DNA of 26,028 bases from a virus (lineage: Duplodnaviria; Caudoviricetes): positions 1-26,028 of IMG/VR virus record IMGVR_UViG_3300047476_001619, one strand, 5' to 3'. Both the position numbers and the translations under genes were made by a program. Shown here in pieces: positions 12,292-20,526 of this stretch (the stretch's first letter is position 1; each line of letters opens with the position of its first letter). Below the pieces are notes generated by a model that was given only the letters and a program-made list of their open reading frames with translations, was not told where the DNA came from and ran no database searches.

Positions 12292-12835
12292 GACATTTCT
12301 CCATAAGATGTTTTAACACTCTTGCAGCATTATAAGAATCCCAATAAGGATCGTGCTTATCTCCCTCAAACTTCATACCTAATTCTGCTAAAGATCTTTG
12401 TAAGCCATTGTTATAAGGCTTTCCAGTCATAATAGAATAAAGCAAAGATATATTTACACACTCATTTGAAAAAGGATATTTGCACTGTTTAGTTCTGCAA
12501 TCATAATAAAGTTTCTCACTATCCTGTCCCCAAGCAGCACAAGGATAAGATTTGCCCTTGAATTTTTCCATTATGCTCTTACACATAAATTCAAAGTCAA
12601 CTCCATTTTCAGCCTGCTCTTTTGTAATACCAGTGATACGAGTGCAATAGTCAGAAACTTCAGTCTTTTCTGGCTTGCAAATCATATGAAATTTATCAAC
12701 AATTTCCAAACTCTTAATATCCAAAATACAAGCCCCGAGACTTATAATTTCTCGAGACTTGTATGCGTTTTCTCTACCTTCCCAACAAGTAGCTTCAAGA
12801 TCAAAAACAATTATTTTGTCACAGTTGAAAATCAC
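12278..12835 (-). CDS. DEDDh 3'-5' exonuclease (ERI-1/KapD-like)
   Basis: ExoI VFDLEATCWE, EIISLG, CTRITGIT, AWG.D and ExoIII HDPYWDS.N.A. Confidence 0.88.
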   Translation of the reverse strand: MIFNCDKIIVFDLEATCWEGRENAYKSREIISLGACILDIKSLEIVDKFHMICKPEKTEVSDYCTRITGITKEQAENGVDFEFMCKSIMEKFKGKSYPCAAWGQDSEKLYYDCRTKQCKYPFSNECVNISLLYSIMTGKPYNNGLQRSLAELGMKFEGDKHDPYWDSYNAARVLKHLMEKCREAV

Positions 12836-13448
12836 TAAACATATGTCCCATCTTTAAATCTACCAACAGTTTATCATAATCAACAGTCTTACCATCCCAG
12901 TATGAATCCCTGAAATTTTGAATGGCATCGTAATATTCTGAACGATCATCAAAAAAGATTATTGCTGGATCTTGACCTAAATCACATAAGACTTTCTGCA
13001 ACAATAATCGCCCAGTTCTACCATTACCATCAATGAAAGGATGAATTGTTTCAAAATAATGATGAACACTTAAAGCAGCATCAAAAGCTACGATTTTGCC
13101 ACTTTCAGCATCTCTCATAATCCTTTTAGAAAATTCAAACCAATCATTCATCAAATTTTCAAGCATATATGGACTAGGGCAAGTTTCGTGACCAATCCAG
13201 ACATCCACAGTTCTATACTTGCCCGAATTTCCACTATCCTCAAAGAAAGGAATACCACGAGTGAGAAATCTATGAACGTCTAAAGGGGTAGAAAGATTCA
13301 TCTCCCAACCTTCAGATAAAACAAAATTTAGGGCTGAAAGATGATTGTCGTACATTTTGCAACCTAAATGATCACCCATATAACCAGGCTGCGGATCAAT
13401 CTTATTACTCTCACAAACAAAAATATGCTTCCAAGATTTAACAAACAT
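12819..13448 (-). CDS. Fic/Doc family protein
   Basis: Canonical Fic motif HPFIDGNGRTGR; G.YR...V.IG upstream. Confidence 0.92.
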   Translation of the reverse strand: MFVKSWKHIFVCESNKIDPQPGYMGDHLGCKMYDNHLSALNFVLSEGWEMNLSTPLDVHRFLTRGIPFFEDSGNSGKYRTVDVWIGHETCPSPYMLENLMNDWFEFSKRIMRDAESGKIVAFDAALSVHHYFETIHPFIDGNGRTGRLLLQKVLCDLGQDPAIIFFDDRSEYYDAIQNFRDSYWDGKTVDYDKLLVDLKMGHMFSDFQL

Positions 13449-13942: not shown

Positions 13943-14698
13943 ATGCACGAATACTTAAATAATGATTGTATCGAATATCTAAAAACATTGCAAGACGAAT
14001 CAGTAGACTTAATTCTCACTGATCCACCATACTTTATTGGTTTTGATGGCGGTAAAGGATGGGACAAACAATGGAATTCTGATCAAGATTATTTAGACTG
14101 GTGCGAAAAATGGTCCAAAGAATGCGCTAGAATACTAAAGCCAAACAAGATGATGTGCGTCTTTGGTACTCTTAAATATAATACTTTTCTTCGATATAGA
14201 TTAGAAGTATTAGACAAACTTCCAAACTTCCATCAACAAAATGAAATTATCTGGTCATACAATTGGGGTGGAAGAAGTAAAACAAACTTTGCTAGAAAAC
14301 ACGAATTTATTTGGTGCTACTCTAAAGAAAAAACATTTACTTTTAATGCTGATCAAGTAAGAACAGAAAGAAAACAAAAAGTCAACATCAGAACAGGAAA
14401 AGAATATGAACAAGGTACCATTCCAACTTGTGTCTGGGAAAAGAATAATCACACAACAAGCAAAGAATACTGTAATTGGCACCCTACACAAAAACCAATC
14501 AGCATATTAGAAAGATTTATTCTCGCATATACCAATCCAGGAGAAACAGTATTAGACTTATTTAATGGCGCTGGATCCACTATGATAGCTTGTGAAAATA
14601 CTGGAAGAATATTTAAAGGATGCGAAATTGATCCTGATTACTATGAACAATCAATTGCAAGATACACAACACTTACTGGAAAAGGATTTAAGATATGA
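13943..14698 (+). CDS. Orphan DNA N6-adenine/N4-cytosine methyltransferase, beta class
   Basis: DLILTDPPY (motif IV) near the N-terminus, HPTQKP, and VLDLFNGAGST (motif I) near the C-terminus. Confidence 0.93.
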   Translation: MHEYLNNDCIEYLKTLQDESVDLILTDPPYFIGFDGGKGWDKQWNSDQDYLDWCEKWSKECARILKPNKMMCVFGTLKYNTFLRYRLEVLDKLPNFHQQNEIIWSYNWGGRSKTNFARKHEFIWCYSKEKTFTFNADQVRTERKQKVNIRTGKEYEQGTIPTCVWEKNNHTTSKEYCNWHPTQKPISILERFILAYTNPGETVLDLFNGAGSTMIACENTGRIFKGCEIDPDYYEQSIARYTTLTGKGFKI

Positions 14699-15509: not shown

Positions 15510-15538
15510 GAATTTTCTTGGTATAATTGTTTTGATGG

Positions 15539-15819
15539 TCCAACTTAGCTCAGCGGAAGAGCAATCGGCTGTGAAAAGATAGCAGCTTATTAGAGTAATT
15601 TAATATAGAAAATTGTCGAAATTCAGTGAAAACTAAGTCGAAAGATATGTCAACACTGAGCCAAGCCTGAAAAGGAAGGTGCAGAGACTATAATGACGAC
15701 ATCCTACTAGGTAATGCTAAGGATGATGGTATAGTCCAGACTACAAACAGTTTATCTGGTAGTGAAAACTATAGTAGTAAGTAACCGATCGGTCGCTGGT
15801 TCGATCCCAGCAGTTGGAG
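15539..15819 (+). tRNA. trnN: tRNA-Asn(GUU), split by a group I intron (exons 15539-15572 and 15782-15819)
   Basis: Joined exons fold as acceptor TCCAACT/AGTTGGA, D arm GCTC/GAGC, anticodon stem ATCGG/CCGAT with loop CT-GT^T-AA, T arm GCTGG-TTCGATC-CCAGC, discriminator G. No encoded CCA. Confidence 0.93.
15573..15781 (+). ncRNA. Group I intron, 209 nt, ORF-less
   Basis: 5' exon ends in U. P1 ggctgt/gcagct has a U-G pair at the splice site. P AAATTCAGTGAAA, Q AACACTGAGC, R GTGCAGAGACTA, S GGTATAGTCC, terminal G. Confidence 0.92.
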
Positions 15820-15822
15820 TGT

Positions 15823-15849
15823 AAAGCCCTCGAATAAATGAGGGCTTTT
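15823..15849 (+). terminator. Intrinsic terminator after tRNA-Asn
   Basis: aaagccctc/gagggcttt followed by T. Confidence 0.65.
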
Positions 15850-15860
15850 AGTTTGAATTT

Positions 15861-15934
15861 GGCCTGTTAGTCGAGTGGTTTAAGATGCGTCCCTTTCACG
15901 GATGAGATCAGGGGTTCGATCCCCCTACAGGCTA
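15861..15934 (+). tRNA. trnE: tRNA-Glu(UUC)
   Basis: Acceptor GGCCTGT/ACAGGCT, anticodon arm CGTCC-CTTTCAC-GGATG, T arm AGGGG-TTCGATC-CCCCT. Confidence 0.93.
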
Positions 15935-15966
15935 TAAATTGTGGTATAATTAGTATGTAAGTTTGT

Positions 15967-16037
15967 TCCCCGGTCGTCTAACGGAAGGACCCGAGTTTTT
16001 GGAGCTTGTTATCGTAGTTCGAGTCTACGCTGGGGAA
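15967..16037 (+). tRNA. trnQ: tRNA-Gln(UUG)
   Basis: Acceptor TCCCCGG/CTGGGGA, anticodon arm CGAGT-TTTTGGA-GCTTG (two G-U pairs), T arm CGTAG-TTCGAGT-CTACG. TGGTATAAT upstream. Confidence 0.85.
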
Positions 16038-16041
16038 TTTT

Positions 16042-16114
16042 GCCAGATTAGTTCATCGGCTAGAACGACGGTTTTGTAAACCGTATGTGGCGGGTTCAAT
16101 TCCTGCATCTGGCT
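16042..16114 (+). tRNA. trnT: tRNA-Thr(UGU)
   Basis: Acceptor GCCAGAT/ATCTGGC, anticodon arm ACGGT-TTTGTAA-ACCGT, T arm GCGGG-TTCAATT-CCTGC. Confidence 0.92.
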
Positions 16115-16115
16115 T

Positions 16116-16148
16116 AAAACCTACCTTTAGTTCAAAGGTAGGTTTTTT
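16116..16148 (+). terminator. Intrinsic terminator after the tRNA cluster
   Basis: aaaacctaccttt/aaaggtaggtttt followed by TT. Confidence 0.8.
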
Positions 16149-16164
16149 GTTGTACAAGTGAACT

Positions 16165-16653
16165 ATGGATAAAACTAATTTAGAAAATTATATTTCACTT
16201 AATTATTCAACTCGCAAAATTGCACAACTAGAAAATAAAAGCCAAACAACAATTCGTCATTGGTTAAAGAAGTACGAACTCAAAACGAACTTAAACACTT
16301 TTGAACTTAACGAATATAAATGCAAGTGTGGCGAAACTAATCCAGAAAAATTTTATGGACACAAAAAATCAGTTTGTGCAGATTGTCATAACGAATATGT
16401 TTTAGGATCTGGAAAAAATAAAAAACAAAAGGCTAGACAGTATCTTGGTGGCTGCTGTAAAATTTGTGGTTTTGATAAGTATCCTTGCTCATTAGACATA
16501 CATCATTTAGATCCAACAGTCAAAGATAATAATTTCAAGTCTATGAGAGGCTGGTCTTGGGAAAGAATTTTACAAGAAATTGAAACTTGTGTTTTATTAT
16601 GCAAAAATTGTCACGCTGCAGTTCATTCTGGTTTAGTTGAAATACCAGAATAA
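16165..16653 (+). CDS. Free-standing HNH endonuclease with N-terminal HTH and zinc-binding motifs
   Basis: HTH-like STRKIAQLENKSQTTIRHWLKKY; CKC...CADC; CKICG...LDIHHLDP..K...CVLLCKNCHAAVH. Confidence 0.88.
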   Translation: MDKTNLENYISLNYSTRKIAQLENKSQTTIRHWLKKYELKTNLNTFELNEYKCKCGETNPEKFYGHKKSVCADCHNEYVLGSGKNKKQKARQYLGGCCKICGFDKYPCSLDIHHLDPTVKDNNFKSMRGWSWERILQEIETCVLLCKNCHAAVHSGLVEIPE

Positions 16654-16699
16654 TATTTTATGGTATACTGTGTTAGATAAATCTTTAAAGGATAAAATT

Positions 16700-16822
16700 A
16701 TGAATTATTTAATTTTCGATGCAGTATTGTTTGTTCTTGTTGCTCCTTTGTATGTTCAGCTTTATTTGGTTGGCAGGACATTGAAATCATTGACTCGTAA
16801 GACAGCTAAATTGGTGGAGTAG
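16700..16822 (+). CDS. 40 aa single-TM protein (start revised to 16700)
   Basis: SD aagga; MNYLIFDAVLFVLVAPLYVQLYLVGR...; TGGTATACT upstream. Confidence 0.55.
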   Translation: MNYLIFDAVLFVLVAPLYVQLYLVGRTLKSLTRKTAKLVE

Positions 16823-16826
16823 AGTT

Positions 16827-16955
16827 ATGTGGGAAAAAACTATTATTATTGTTTTAGTCACTTGGTTTATTACTTTGCCATTTACTCTTTATATTAATTA
16901 TCGTTTGGATCGTCTTATAAAGATGTTGGATAAATCAATTACAGACCGACCATAA
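16827..16955 (+). CDS. Putative 42 aa single-TM protein
   Basis: SD ggag; MWEKTIIIVLVTWFITLPFTLYINYRLDRLIKMLDKSITDRP; followed by a terminator. Confidence 0.55.
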   Translation: MWEKTIIIVLVTWFITLPFTLYINYRLDRLIKMLDKSITDRP

Positions 16956-16958
16956 GAT

Positions 16959-16985
16959 AAATCCCATCAGAAATGATGGGATTTT
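16959..16985 (+). terminator. Intrinsic terminator
   Basis: aaatcccatca/tgatgggattt followed by a T-rich tract. Confidence 0.75.
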
Positions 16986-17006
16986 GTTTTTAAGGTAAAA
17001 TAAATT

Positions 17007-17321
17007 ATGACTGAACGTGAGTGGATAGAAAAGATTAAAAAAGAATGTGTCTTGAATGTTGGTAATTTTGACACTCGTTATGCTATTCAATTAGTTGGGA
17101 GAAGTGGGAGTAAGATTGGTCTTGTTTCTCTCAATAAGCGTTTTATGAGTGTTGATGTTATTGATAAGTTAAAATATGAGCGTTTTTATGATAAATTTTA
17201 TTCTAGAAATGATAAGGATGTTCGAGCCCCTTTAGTTATTGATTATCATATAGAGCACAACATTGGTAAAAATGGATTTAAAGAGCTTTGGGATTTTTAT
17301 TATAAGAAAGTAAAGAAATGA
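17007..17321 (+). CDS. Hypothetical protein
   Basis: 104 aa; TAAAAT 5 nt upstream of the ATG. Confidence 0.7.
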   Translation: MTEREWIEKIKKECVLNVGNFDTRYAIQLVGRSGSKIGLVSLNKRFMSVDVIDKLKYERFYDKFYSRNDKDVRAPLVIDYHIEHNIGKNGFKELWDFYYKKVKK

Positions 17322-17533
17322 AATATAAATACACTATAGAGGGTAAAAATGGCAGAATTGGGGGCTCGAATAGTGATTATAATTGGATACTTAAAGAAAG
17401 AGATGCAATTATGAAAGCTATTTTTCCTAATTTTGTATTGAGTGAGAAATTGAATGATCTTGTAAATAGTCCAGATTATTTAGTTTATGAGTTTGGAGAT
17501 GAAAAAGTTTATTTTAAAATAGAAAAGGAGTAA
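17318..17533 (+). CDS. Hypothetical protein
   Basis: 71 aa, ATGA overlap. Confidence 0.65.
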   Translation: MKYKYTIEGKNGRIGGSNSDYNWILKERDAIMKAIFPNFVLSEKLNDLVNSPDYLVYEFGDEKVYFKIEKE

Positions 17534-17536
17534 ATT

Positions 17537-17803
17537 ATGGAAGTTACTATTATTTTATCTTGGTTATTTATTTTAGTTATTGGATATTTATGTGGCAAGT
17601 GGGCATCAAAGAAGGGATATAACTTCTGGGCTTGGTTTTTTGGGGGTAGTGTATTGGGAGCTGTTGTAATTGCTTGTCTTCCTAATGTGAATGATATGGA
17701 AGAGAGTAAGAGAGAAAAGCAAGTTCTTGTTGGCAATACTATCGGAATTGTTATGGCAGTAATTGCTTTCTTATTAGGATTTATGACTAATCTTCCTAAG
17801 TAA
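17537..17803 (+). CDS. Small three-TM membrane protein
   Basis: WASKKGYNFWAWFF...GAVVIACLP; SD aaggag. Confidence 0.75.
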   Translation: MEVTIILSWLFILVIGYLCGKWASKKGYNFWAWFFGGSVLGAVVIACLPNVNDMEESKREKQVLVGNTIGIVMAVIAFLLGFMTNLPK

Positions 17804-17830
17804 AAAAGGGGAGCTTTGCTCCCCTTTTTT
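17802..17830. terminator. Bidirectional intrinsic terminator
   Basis: aaaaaaggggagc-ttt-gctcccctttttt between convergent genes. Confidence 0.88.
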
Positions 17831-18236
17831 AGTCTTCATATTGATCGTAATAATCATCATCGTCAGGCATTGGAACATTAAAATTTTCTTCTGCAGCGAA
17901 ATGACAATAAGATAAATCTGAATGAGCAATAAGTAGTTTCATCATTGTTTCATAGAGAGCTGGATCTGTGCAATATGGTGTGTAGAGTTGTGCTACTTTA
18001 TCGTAATTAAGTAAGAGAAACTTTTGATTATTTAAACTAACAATGAAAAATTTATTTAGTGGAGTTTCTGCTGTGAATGCTTGTAATCCAGGAACATTTT
18101 TCTTTAGCATTTCCCAATCAATTCCAAGATTGTTTTGAGCAGGAAAAATACTTCTTCCCCAATCTTTTATGGTAAGAACTTGTTGAATATCAAAAGAAGA
18201 TTGTCTTGGTAAATTATAAATATCAATTATTTTCAT
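17829..18236 (-). CDS. Hypothetical protein (start revised to 18236)
   Basis: MKIIDIYNLPRQ start avoids overlap with the divergent gene; GGTATAAT upstream; acidic tail. Confidence 0.65.
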   Translation of the reverse strand: MKIIDIYNLPRQSSFDIQQVLTIKDWGRSIFPAQNNLGIDWEMLKKNVPGLQAFTAETPLNKFFIVSLNNQKFLLLNYDKVAQLYTPYCTDPALYETMMKLLIAHSDLSYCHFAAEENFNVPMPDDDDYYDQYED

Positions 18237-18275
18237 CTTATTTGCATTATACCTGATGTGTGGTATGCTATCCTT

Positions 18276-18458
18276 ATGAAGCATACAATTACTATCATTG
18301 ACGAGAATTTTGAAGAGAAAAGTCTTGAAATGACTTATGCTCAATTGAAAGAACTTAATCGTTGGTTAAATATATATTTAAACACTGGCAAAACAATCGA
18401 ATATAAGAAAGAAAGAAATTCTAATAAAATTGTTGATGTAAAGCTTGCACAGATGTAA
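18276..18458 (+). CDS. Hypothetical protein (start revised to 18276)
   Basis: TTGCAT...TGGTATGCT, then 6 nt, then ATG; MKHTITIIDENFEEK. Confidence 0.6.
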   Translation: MKHTITIIDENFEEKSLEMTYAQLKELNRWLNIYLNTGKTIEYKKERNSNKIVDVKLAQM

Positions 18459-18511
18459 GTTGTGGTATAATTAGAGTGTAAGAGAAATACTTACAAATAA
18501 AAATTGAATAT

Positions 18512-18818
18512 GCCTCGTTAGCTCAGTGGAATTTAGAGCATCCGCCTTTTGAGGATCATATAATAATATGGTCATTTGGAGCCTTTGTAGAGAATAATAA
18601 TCTATAGAGTGGATGGTACTGTATCGGTGAAAGCTAAGTAGAAATATATGCTAATACCGAGGGAAGTTGAGAAGAAATTCTTTAACCCCGTAGAGACTAT
18701 ACGTACCACACCTGAAATGGTGAAGATATAGTCCAGACCACAAACATAGAAATATGGTAGTGAAAACTATAGTGGTAAGCTAAGCGGAGGGTCAGTGGTT
18801 CGAGCCCACTACGAGGTA
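18512..18818 (+). tRNA. trnR: tRNA-Arg(UCU), split by a group I intron (exons 18512-18548 and 18780-18818)
   Basis: Joined exons: acceptor GCCTCGT/ACGAGGT, D arm GCTC/GAGC with A20 (Arg identity element), anticodon stem TCCGC/GCGGA with loop CT-T^CT-AA, T arm AGTGG-TTCGAGC-CCACT. TGTGGTATAAT promoter upstream. Confidence 0.88.
18549..18779 (+). ncRNA. Group I intron, 231 nt, ORF-less
   Basis: P TATCGGTGAAA pairs with Q AATACCGAG; R CGTAGAGACTA; S AAGATATAGTCC; terminal G. 3' region nearly identical to the Asn intron. P1 pairing is less clear, so the 5' boundary is set by the 7-nt anticodon loop. Confidence 0.88.
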
Positions 18819-18823
18819 TCAAT

Positions 18824-18855
18824 AAAATCCCATCTGGTTAGGATGGGATTTATTT
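18824..18855 (+). terminator. Intrinsic terminator after tRNA-Arg
   Basis: aaatcccatc/gatgggattt; same stem as the 16959 terminator. Confidence 0.7.
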
Positions 18856-19389: not shown

Positions 19390-19437
19390 ATTAGATTTGT
19401 ACAGGTGGAACTAGCTTGGAAAGAAAAAATTATTATT

Positions 19438-20526
19438 ATGTGGTATAGAATAGCTCAACAATTACAACTTCCTGGATTAGATGTAGAAAAATCTGCGCCT
19501 AAAAGCAAAGTAACATCAGAACCAAAAGAAAAAGCTCCAGAACTTTTAGAAACTCAAAAAGAACCTAAAAGTTTATTCTTTAGTGATTGGGCTAAAGATC
19601 ATTACGTTCCTCATCAACCTGTCTATCACGGAACAACACACGAATTTGATAGATTTGATATAAACAAAGGTGTGTCATCTAATGCTTTTGGTCAAGGATT
19701 TTATTTTACTAGTGATGAAAGAGATGCCACTGAAAATTACACTGGTTCTGGGCCTGATCAAAAAGCAAAAATTACAGATCTAGAATATAAATTGATGGAT
19801 GAAAATGATGAAGACGCTTATTATCTATGGAACTTGTATGGTGATGATCCAAGATACCGCCCTTATTTTAACGAAGACGGGACTGTTGCAAGCCTTCAAT
19901 ACTTAGTAGAAAAAATTGCAAATGATACTGTTTTAGGTGCCAATAAGTCAAGAGTAATTCCAGCTCATATAAGAATGAAAAATCCATTGCACTTGACATC
20001 AGAAGGCGATACAGAACATCCAGAAAAAACTTTTGTTGATGATACAGATGAGACACTAGAGTTTTTTAATGAAAACGATGTTGATGAGTCTGATAATAAT
20101 TCTTATAAGACAGTAATTATGAAACTTCACAATATTTTATTAGATTATATGGATTCAGATGAAGCATATCAAATTTGTGAAGATTTGATACAGTATACAA
20201 CTGGATCTGTTGATGGTGCAGTTTCTGCAGTTATGATGATGAATAGTCTTAAGGGATCTTTAGCAACTTTTGACAATGATAATGACACAGATTATAAGGG
20301 TGAAATTATTCAAAGATTTTTAAATTCAATAGGGTACGACAGTATAATTATGAATCCTAATGAATTTTTCAGAATGTATTCAAAAGAAAAACCTATCAAG
20401 CACTATATTACTTGGGATCCTGAAAATATAAAACACGCTAGAGAAAATCTTGAATTTGATCCAAGCAATCCTGTTATCACTGCTAATAGTGGTAGAATTA
20501 ATTTATGGAAGAATTCTTTGCTGTAG
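19438..20526 (+). CDS. ADP-ribosyltransferase-like (ART-PolyVal-type) domain protein (start revised to 19438)
   Basis: VYHGTTHEFDRFD...FGQGFYFTSD...A.NY, VIPAHIRMKNPL, GYDSII and WDPENIK. Starts MWYRIAQ. Confidence 0.7.
   Translation: MWYRIAQQLQLPGLDVEKSAPKSKVTSEPKEKAPELLETQKEPKSLFFSDWAKDHYVPHQPVYHGTTHEFDRFDINKGVSSNAFGQGFYFTSDERDATENYTGSGPDQKAKITDLEYKLMDENDEDAYYLWNLYGDDPRYRPYFNEDGTVASLQYLVEKIANDTVLGANKSRVIPAHIRMKNPLHLTSEGDTEHPEKTFVDDTDETLEFFNENDVDESDNNSYKTVIMKLHNILLDYMDSDEAYQICEDLIQYTTGSVDGAVSAVMMMNSLKGSLATFDNDNDTDYKGEIIQRFLNSIGYDSIIMNPNEFFRMYSKEKPIKHYITWDPENIKHARENLEFDPSNPVITANSGRINLWKNSLL

Follow-up and report, generated by a model that had tools for sequence, protein, structure and literature searches.

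The question raised by this locus is how two group I introns came to interrupt two different transfer RNA (tRNA) genes of the same phage. The stretch analysed, hereafter the window, is the entire 26 kb viral record IMGVR_UViG_3300047476_001619 (26,028 nucleotides; Duplodnaviria, Caudoviricetes), whose estimated completeness is 7%; it is therefore a fragment of a very large phage. Within it, a tRNA-Asn(GUU) gene is split by intron 1 and a tRNA-Arg(UCU) gene by intron 2. A first-pass annotation of the same DNA had seen in the two a single lineage, devoid of open reading frames (ORFs), that spread among anticodon loops by guide retargeting, for example via reverse splicing. As judged from the sequences compared here, introns 1 and 2 are separate branches of one broad bacterial tRNA-intron family and not one lineage.

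Excision of 15573-15781 (joining 15572 to 15782) yields a tRNA-Asn(GUU) split between positions 35 and 36, and excision of 18549-18779 (joining 18548 to 18780) a tRNA-Arg(UCU) split at 34/35, in each case with U at position -1 and a terminal G. The site of intron 1 is fixed because natural intron-less Asn alleles exist: 3 of 11 metagenome matches to the Asn 3' exon are intron-less, two of them with exons equal to those of the window over the stretch compared and the third differing at one D-loop position. That of intron 2 is fixed by locus L476, an intact copy of the Arg tRNA body whose versions in L046 and L285 hold a near-identical intron. The Rfam model RF00028 matches intron 1 with 77.3 bits (15563-15754) and intron 2 with 49.8 bits (18563-18759, E 1.1e-13), just below the cut-off of 50. 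Both introns match the catalytic-core model, form P3-P9 helices with covariation, and have a U.G wobble at the 5' splice site in P1, a P10 and the terminal G. They also share the structural traits of subgroup IC3, i.e. no P7.1/P7.2, no P5abc, a compact core and GNRA-type loops with a receptor in P5. We use the IC3 label provisionally, because a preprint on tRNA introns at 35/36 in Patescibacteria reportedly puts those introns in IA. IC3 introns lack P5a-d, according to the accessible part of PMC11835236. Neither intron holds an ORF of 60 amino acids or more.

The 5' guide regions differ and match different exons, as had been proposed. In intron 1, 15582-15586 pairs with the last five bases of the 5' exon, with the wobble at U35.G, and 15578-15581 pairs with the 3' exon at 3 of 4 positions (P10). 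In intron 2, 18579-18581 pairs with C32-U33-U34 and 18575-18578 with the 3' exon, again at 3 of 4 positions; this guide is constant in all close relatives, and the stretch preceding it is variable. A proximal guide at 18551-18554 was rejected, because its loop would have only 2 bases and because relatives do not conserve it. In intron 2, L2 is not a GNRA tetraloop. The motifs on which the proposal of a single lineage had been built are all present in both introns: P4 (half-helices at 15623/15654 and 18624/18656), the closing helix (15740/15774 and 18737/18772), P5 (15633/15645 and 18634/18646) and the common 3' end, with two occurrences in the window and none in 100 shuffles. In an alignment of 33 family members (all alignments were based on MAFFT), 94.6% of the cells in P2-P9 are paired and 27 of the 46 pairs show changes of both partners, values equalled by 0 of 500 shuffles, with 32-45% of cells pairing in slid controls; the structure was predicted from the same alignment, except for an added P7, and the test is thus not fully independent. 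The covariation first reported for P4 and for the closing helix was borne out, with splits of 28 G-C to 5 A-U and 27 C-G to 5 U-A pairs, respectively.

The two introns belong to one structural family, and their separate ancestry within it is indicated by several results. Core identity between them is 0.61, against a median of 0.62 for the whole set; they fall in different starred clades of the family tree; and forcing them together costs 83.7 log units in the approximately unbiased (AU) test (p-AU 0.0016), in which the constraint was the grouping proposed by the first-pass annotation but was run after the tree was known. This tree comprises 67 rows (63 representatives at less than 90% identity and 4 close relatives) and 138 columns, with the guide and the search motif excluded. 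The clade of intron 1 holds viral Asn, Lys, Glu and Met introns, and the core of intron 1 is 58-64% identical to those of four classical-site introns. The clade of intron 2 (99/93) holds five bacterial Arg(UCU) 34/35 introns, one Lys and one Thr intron, its bacterial members coming from Lysinibacillus, Viridibacillus, a gammaproteobacterium and a Caldilineales genome. The intron 2 core is 0.68-0.76 identical to three bacterial sisters, with two Bacillales Arg(UCU) introns at 0.75-0.76. Around the Viridibacillus and Caldilineales loci, the neighbouring genes look host-like by eye; some contigs of metagenome-assembled genomes may be viral. In a wider tree that includes cyanobacterial and Patescibacteria introns the two are still apart, although this tree is a rough check only, as its alignment has errors at the 5' end of six rows and two further rows had to be left out. 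The grouping of intron 2 with cellular introns at its own site is the very arrangement that had been named as evidence against a single lineage. What stands of the proposal is one broad tRNA-intron family with the same 3' domain. Its ORF-less character holds for the two introns themselves and fails beyond them: intron 2 has bacterial sisters with a PDDEXK_5 ORF, and an intron in dnaB with the same 3' end contains a GIY-YIG gene.

The P5 motif, which had been taken as a sign of kinship, fares differently. Its sequence closely matches the 11-nucleotide GAAA-tetraloop receptor, together with a GAAA loop (receptor consensus and properties as given in the accessible parts of PMC10004510 and PMC2275092), and only 17 of its 119 viral matches are these two tRNA introns, most of the others lying in P4-P5-like contexts of other introns. 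For these reasons we consider that the motif arose likelier through convergence than through descent, as far as its sequence tells. The exact motif is, however, present in only 14 of 116 family introns, all within the two window-type clades, and sister introns have other P5 sequences. This would fit an exchange of P5 by gene conversion between separately derived, co-resident introns, which would then be mosaics. We regard such an exchange as quite improbable, since convergence or a common pool explains a motif that is so close to a generic receptor and so widespread outside these introns.

At the level of the whole family, retargeting among tRNAs did take place. A scan of viral DNA with the 3' motif gave at least 121 loci in 34 of 64 parts, or about 230 estimated overall, and a relaxed motif gave 42 loci in bacterial genome records. 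The 296 sequences searched contained 176 motif matches, of which 140 could be placed in a split tRNA and came down to 116 distinct introns. The other 36 were set aside because their flank was short, because they lay in a protein gene or because no tRNA was recognised. This sample was chosen by the 3' motif and is not a census. It falls, after three label corrections, into 12 classes of tRNA and position: Leu(UAA) with 56 introns, Met with 20, Arg(UCU) 34/35 with 15, Asn with 10, and eight rarer ones. Guide pairing was the basis of these corrections of the automatic calls, the introns in L112/L128, L100 and L154 being in Thr(UGU) with C33, Lys(UUU) and Ile(UAU), all at 34/35. Guides follow their exons: for 115 of the 116 introns, exon bases -2 to -4 are paired at 2.23 of 3 positions with the own exon versus 1.48 with exons of other sites (0 of 5000 permutations), and P10 pairing is 2.11 versus 1.48 (16 of 5000), the permutations having used the uncorrected labels. 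Mapping of insertion sites onto the intron phylogeny gave 21 site changes, where the minimum is 11 and shuffled sites average 35. These sequences thus indicate that guides were retargeted repeatedly within the family, with sites still clustered, and moves to new tRNAs look old and rare. Transposition of introns between tRNA genes has been proposed before. A scan with a 14-base guide pattern was of no use, as nearly all of its 119 loci were chance matches (1 with the family 3' motif).

Could retargeting and reverse splicing of one ORF-less lineage nevertheless connect these two tRNAs? The shared 3' domain, the guide-exon covariation, the number of site changes and the confinement of the exact P5 motif to the two clades all speak for it. 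The pair itself falls in separate clades, so that this model is largely refuted for these two introns, and we consider it highly improbable.

Several family members deserve mention in their own right. Five UCA-anticodon tRNAs (L005, L039, L068, L073 and L163), called selenocysteine tRNAs by ARAGORN and more likely TGA-reading tRNA-Trp, each contain a family intron of 341-360 nt at 34/35. In the cultured jumbo phage Atu_ph07 of Agrobacterium (L292, MF403008), an unannotated tRNA-Leu(UAA) at 1286-1563 holds a 278-nt family intron. The 286-nt tRNA-Arg of a Microcoleus phage in GenBank (L291, OR578706, 1311-1596) is an Arg(CCU) gene with a family intron at 36/37, and a PD-(D/E)XK gene lies directly upstream. 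In LR745208 (L297), a tRNA-Ile(UAU) at 916-1125 has an intron at 34/35 whose core resembles that of intron 2; the anticodon arm of this tRNA nearly equals that of the window Arg gene, and an HNH homologue lies about 130 bp downstream on the opposite strand. Anticodon change or co-conversion could here be the route of introns between isotypes. The same or a similar 3' domain is also found in introns of protein genes (dnaB of a Kolpuevirus, L295; the capsid gene of a Pelagibacter phage, L296; L008, L012 and L029). A group I match in a Viridibacillus genome (L437) adjoins resolvase and TnpB-like genes and is possibly an IStron.

How, then, did the two introns spread in more recent times? In related phages, Asn introns 95-98% identical to that of the window sit in tRNA bodies with 61-74% identity. 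For Arg, the introns are 92-94% identical (96.5-99% when counted from the guide onwards) and the bodies 67-69%. Intron-less forms are known for three Asn bodies and one Arg body. This combination of near-identical introns in unlike tRNA bodies with intact forms is, at the level of sequence, a pattern that points to same-site homing. Candidate nucleases are found nearby. A free-standing HNH gene of about 250 amino acids (PHROG 2255) lies about 150 bp behind the split Asn site in many relatives, at a spot where the window has an Asn-Glu spacing of about 40 bp; it is present in 12 of 22 related locus types, to which 41 loci were reduced at 95% identity, and in 11 of the 15 Asn locus types that bear the intron. 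The intron is found in 11 of 12 loci with this HNH gene versus 4 of 10 without it (Fisher p=0.020, or 0.027 with L531 added). On one of two trees built from flanking genes, the states of intron and HNH are scattered. The sole intact Asn gene beside the HNH gene, in L441, has a remodelled anticodon stem. No match to the HNH protein was found among solved structures. Of 9 mapped Patescibacteria Asn 35/36 introns, 5 contain a homologue of it (40-47%), and the 5' ends of these introns come from ARAGORN scoring alone; the HNH family is broad, so that a common target is not implied. For Arg, a PDDEXK_5 gene stands behind the tRNA in one phage with the intron and in one with a divergent intact Arg, and two Lysinibacillus Arg(UCU) 34/35 introns encode, between P4 and P7, a full member of this family that is 137-138 amino acids long and shares 41-43% identity with the phage protein over 100 amino acids. 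These two introns are outside the tree and have core motifs of the intron 2 type. Deleted remnants of the same ORF in other Lysinibacillus Arg introns (L127, L129) represent stages of nuclease decay.

The explanation that we hold to be probable, with some room left for doubt, is that the two introns are self-splicing, as predicted, and that each spreads by DNA homing at its own tRNA with the endonuclease provided in trans. G-dependent self-splicing would restore both tRNAs, and the inserts would then cost little. During co-infection, the free-standing HNH behind tRNA-Asn or the PD-(D/E)XK enzyme behind tRNA-Arg would cut the intact anticodon region of a rival, and during repair the intron would be copied across, either alone or together with the nuclease gene. 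A genome that already has the intron would be spared, its target being divided by the insert. The guess in the first-pass annotation that the insert hides the anticodon site from DNA-level nucleases thus fits in a narrower sense, the nuclease probably being the phage's own homing enzyme. In the window, both nuclease partners would be missing or lost, leaving orphan introns. Moves to another tRNA or position, in which the guide was rewritten, did occur in the family, though seldom and further back, perhaps via off-target homing, reverse splicing or anticodon change; reverse splicing is not needed for the recent spread. Collaborative homing as such is an established mechanism, according to the accessible text of PMC2988022 and PMC10448857.

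A number of observations weigh against homing in trans, or in favour of an account in which whole tRNA cassettes of a hypervariable cluster are exchanged through ordinary recombination and carry introns and HNH genes along as passive, linked cargo, with no targeting of the intron site. The Arg slot in related phages is occupied by three unlike Arg genes or by tRNA-Ile(UAU), and a single slot by five Asn bodies. HNH genes related to the Asn-linked one also stand behind intact Glu and Thr tRNAs, so that adjacency to a tRNA needs no intron, and at a distance of 150 bp the association of intron and HNH could come from plain linkage. The association is not corrected for kinship, and the loci were gathered through HNH and exon searches, which biases the table. 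Trees of two flanking genes (12 and 19 rows) provided 1-4 independent pairs and no significance, and were without power; on one marker the HNH state clusters. Neither putative nuclease partner lies beside the window introns, the PDDEXK_5 gene was found behind Arg in only 2 phage loci, and the family trees rest on 121-138 columns with long branches. Nor do public runs help: among seven with small shares of the region, the two labelled as RNA gave no contig across a splice junction (relatives' contigs only), and the sole contig that skips intron 1, omitting exactly its 209 bases (85% likeness; not listed as a joint at 95%), is from a run flagged as probably DNA and is at best an intron-less allele. 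Across the family, 4 of 25 downstream ORFs match nucleases (25 of 61 representatives had such an ORF; this count is without a control). What cassette exchange alone is insufficient to explain is the presence of the same intron at the same base of unlike bodies that also occur intact. The only intact Asn gene beside the HNH gene has an altered site, and nucleases of the same families are intron-encoded at the same sites in bacteria. We consider passive transport unlikely.

It might also be that the introns are kept because the phage profits from them, either through a splicing-dependent timing of tRNA supply or through protection of the tRNA from host defence. AGA is the main Arg codon of the window (157 of 202), and tRNA-Arg(UCU) may thus matter. 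Close relatives do without either intron, however, and AAC is a minor Asn codon (68 of 379). Anticodon nucleases act on mature tRNA, which is identical with or without the intron. The suggestion in the first-pass annotation that tRNA supply depends on splicing found no support here, and we hold a benefit of this kind to be highly improbable. Extending homing in trans from these two genes to phage tRNA clusters in general, it is tempting to speculate that such clusters are homing battlegrounds, in which each slot is the target of its own free-standing nuclease and a gene survives by means of an intron or a remodelled anticodon arm, and that phages carried the family to at least 12 tRNA sites and across bacterial phyla. 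We offer this tentatively, believing it somewhat less probable than not. The same nuclease families occur inside introns in bacteria and outside them in phages; if the battleground reading is true, steps in the origin of mobile introns would be readable at tRNA sites.

Table 1. Features of the split tRNA genes and their surroundings in the window.
Feature	Coordinates	Strand	Basis
tRNA-Asn(GUU) 5' exon, last base U35	15539..15572	+	intact alleles L469, L474, L477
Intron 1, group I, 209 nt, terminal G	15573..15781	+	RF00028; boundaries from intact alleles
Intron 1 guide	15578..15586	+	pairing; P1 present in minimum-energy fold as well
Intron 1 P4-P5, 11-nt-receptor-like internal loop (~15632-15650)	15623..15659	+	alignment; receptor consensus PMC10004510
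Intron 1 P7 (15686-15690 with 15732-15736), enclosing P3' and P8	15686..15736	+	invariant in 33/33 rows
Intron 1 3' domain common to the family	15731..15781	+	motif scans, alignment
tRNA-Asn 3' exon	15782..15819	+	exon joining
tRNA-Glu(UUC), tRNA-Gln(UUG), tRNA-Thr(UGU), all intact	15860..16114	+	ARAGORN
Free-standing HNH gene, 162 aa, behind tRNA-Thr	16165..16653	+	PHROG 2255, E 2.9e-27
tRNA-Arg(UCU) 5' exon, last base U34	18512..18548	+	exon joining
Intron 2, group I, 231 nt, terminal G	18549..18779	+	RF00028, boundaries
Extra hairpin in L1 loop of intron 2	18554..18573	+	sequence variable among relatives
Intron 2 guide	18575..18581	+	aligned to the family's invariant guide G
Intron 2 P4-P5 with same receptor-like motif (~18633-18651)	18624..18660	+	sequence
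Intron 2 P7 (18695-18699 with 18729-18733), short P8, shared 3' domain	18695..18779	+	sequence, alignment
tRNA-Arg 3' exon	18780..18818	+	exon joining
Terminator-like hairpin 3' of tRNA-Arg	18825-18851		

The order of the cluster, Asn, Glu, Gln, Thr and then Arg, is common to related phages (Table 1). The HNH gene behind tRNA-Thr in the window appears from its sequence to encode a different enzyme from the Asn-linked HNH of relatives, because the two are only 35-37% identical. A relative with 92% identity (L470) has an intact tRNA-Ile(UAU) in the slot of the split tRNA-Arg (18512-18818). In L469, an intact Asn gene is followed, before Glu, by an ORF of 229 amino acids on the opposite strand, cysteine-rich and probably another nuclease. 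An extended -10 element precedes each tRNA unit, at 15519-15527 (promoter scan) and at 15942-15950 and 18462-18470 (by eye). Genes for an ADP-ribosyltransferase-like protein (ART-PolyVal; 19405-20526), a Fic-domain protein (12819-13448) and a DNA methyltransferase (13943-14698) lie near the cluster. A search of deposited phages gave no match to a protein of 937 amino acids.

Phage tRNA inventories are undercounted, because ARAGORN as run misses split tRNA genes: it detected 3 of the 5 tRNAs of the window, the remaining 2 being the split ones, and this family alone matches an estimated 230 viral stretches, most of those examined lying in tRNA genes that ARAGORN misses. Movement of ORF-less tRNA introns is now testable, as intron-plus and intron-minus alleles, a candidate nuclease and a natural escape allele are available. 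The parts of the explanation, tRNA introns and homing in trans, are already known. Our literature searches, with most subscription journals outside their coverage, brought up no paper that treats group I introns of phage tRNA genes. The accessible text of a 2014 review by Hausner (PMC3984707) states that every phage intron seen up to then was in a protein gene, although phages have many tRNA genes, and that direct evidence for the reverse-splicing route is lacking. Twenty-one bacterial settings of tRNA group I introns are described by Williams in 2020 (10.1101/2020.01.27.920355), with no mention of phages in the text as accessible. Jug phages have many group I introns, the word "tRNA" being absent from the main text of that paper in its accessible form, and the word "intron" is absent from the main text of PMC7162821.

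Among known systems, the introns of the window resemble the bacterial tRNA introns of subgroup IC3 (cyanobacterial tRNA-Leu(UAA) and tRNA-fMet, tRNA-Arg(CCU), Azoarcus tRNA-Ile) in their anticodon-loop site, U at -1, terminal G and compact P1-P10 core, and the cyanobacterial tRNA-fMet and some tRNA-Leu introns have the same 3' domain. They differ in that the host is a phage and that intron 2 is a distinct core subtype; Asn 35/36 and Arg(UCU) 34/35 are outside the four classical sites, and both were found in bacteria in this analysis. The cyanobacterial tRNA-fMet intron is said to carry an endonuclease (Bonocora and Shub, 2001), which we take to be I-Ssp6803I and to be linked to PDDEXK_5. This case, a nuclease encoded in an intron and directed at the anticodon region of a tRNA, recalls the PDDEXK_5 ORF inside the bacterial Arg(UCU) introns; the tRNA is another one, and in phages the PDDEXK_5 gene is free-standing and its target putative. 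Lak phages likewise show tRNA-gene introns, with presence/absence variation, in very large phages; in the accessible part of 10.1101/356790 these are called enigmatic, without group I assignment, and the comparison is by description only. The T4 gene for SegB lies in a tRNA region, as do the nuclease genes here, but SegB has no intron partner (PMC3984707, accessible part). In phage collaborative homing, as the accessible text of PMC2988022 and PMC10448857 describes it, the introns are in protein genes, whereas here they are in tRNA genes and the candidate partners are absent from the window; it is the related phages that resemble T4 mobE/nrdB, with a free-standing nuclease beside an ORF-less intron and presence/absence among relatives.

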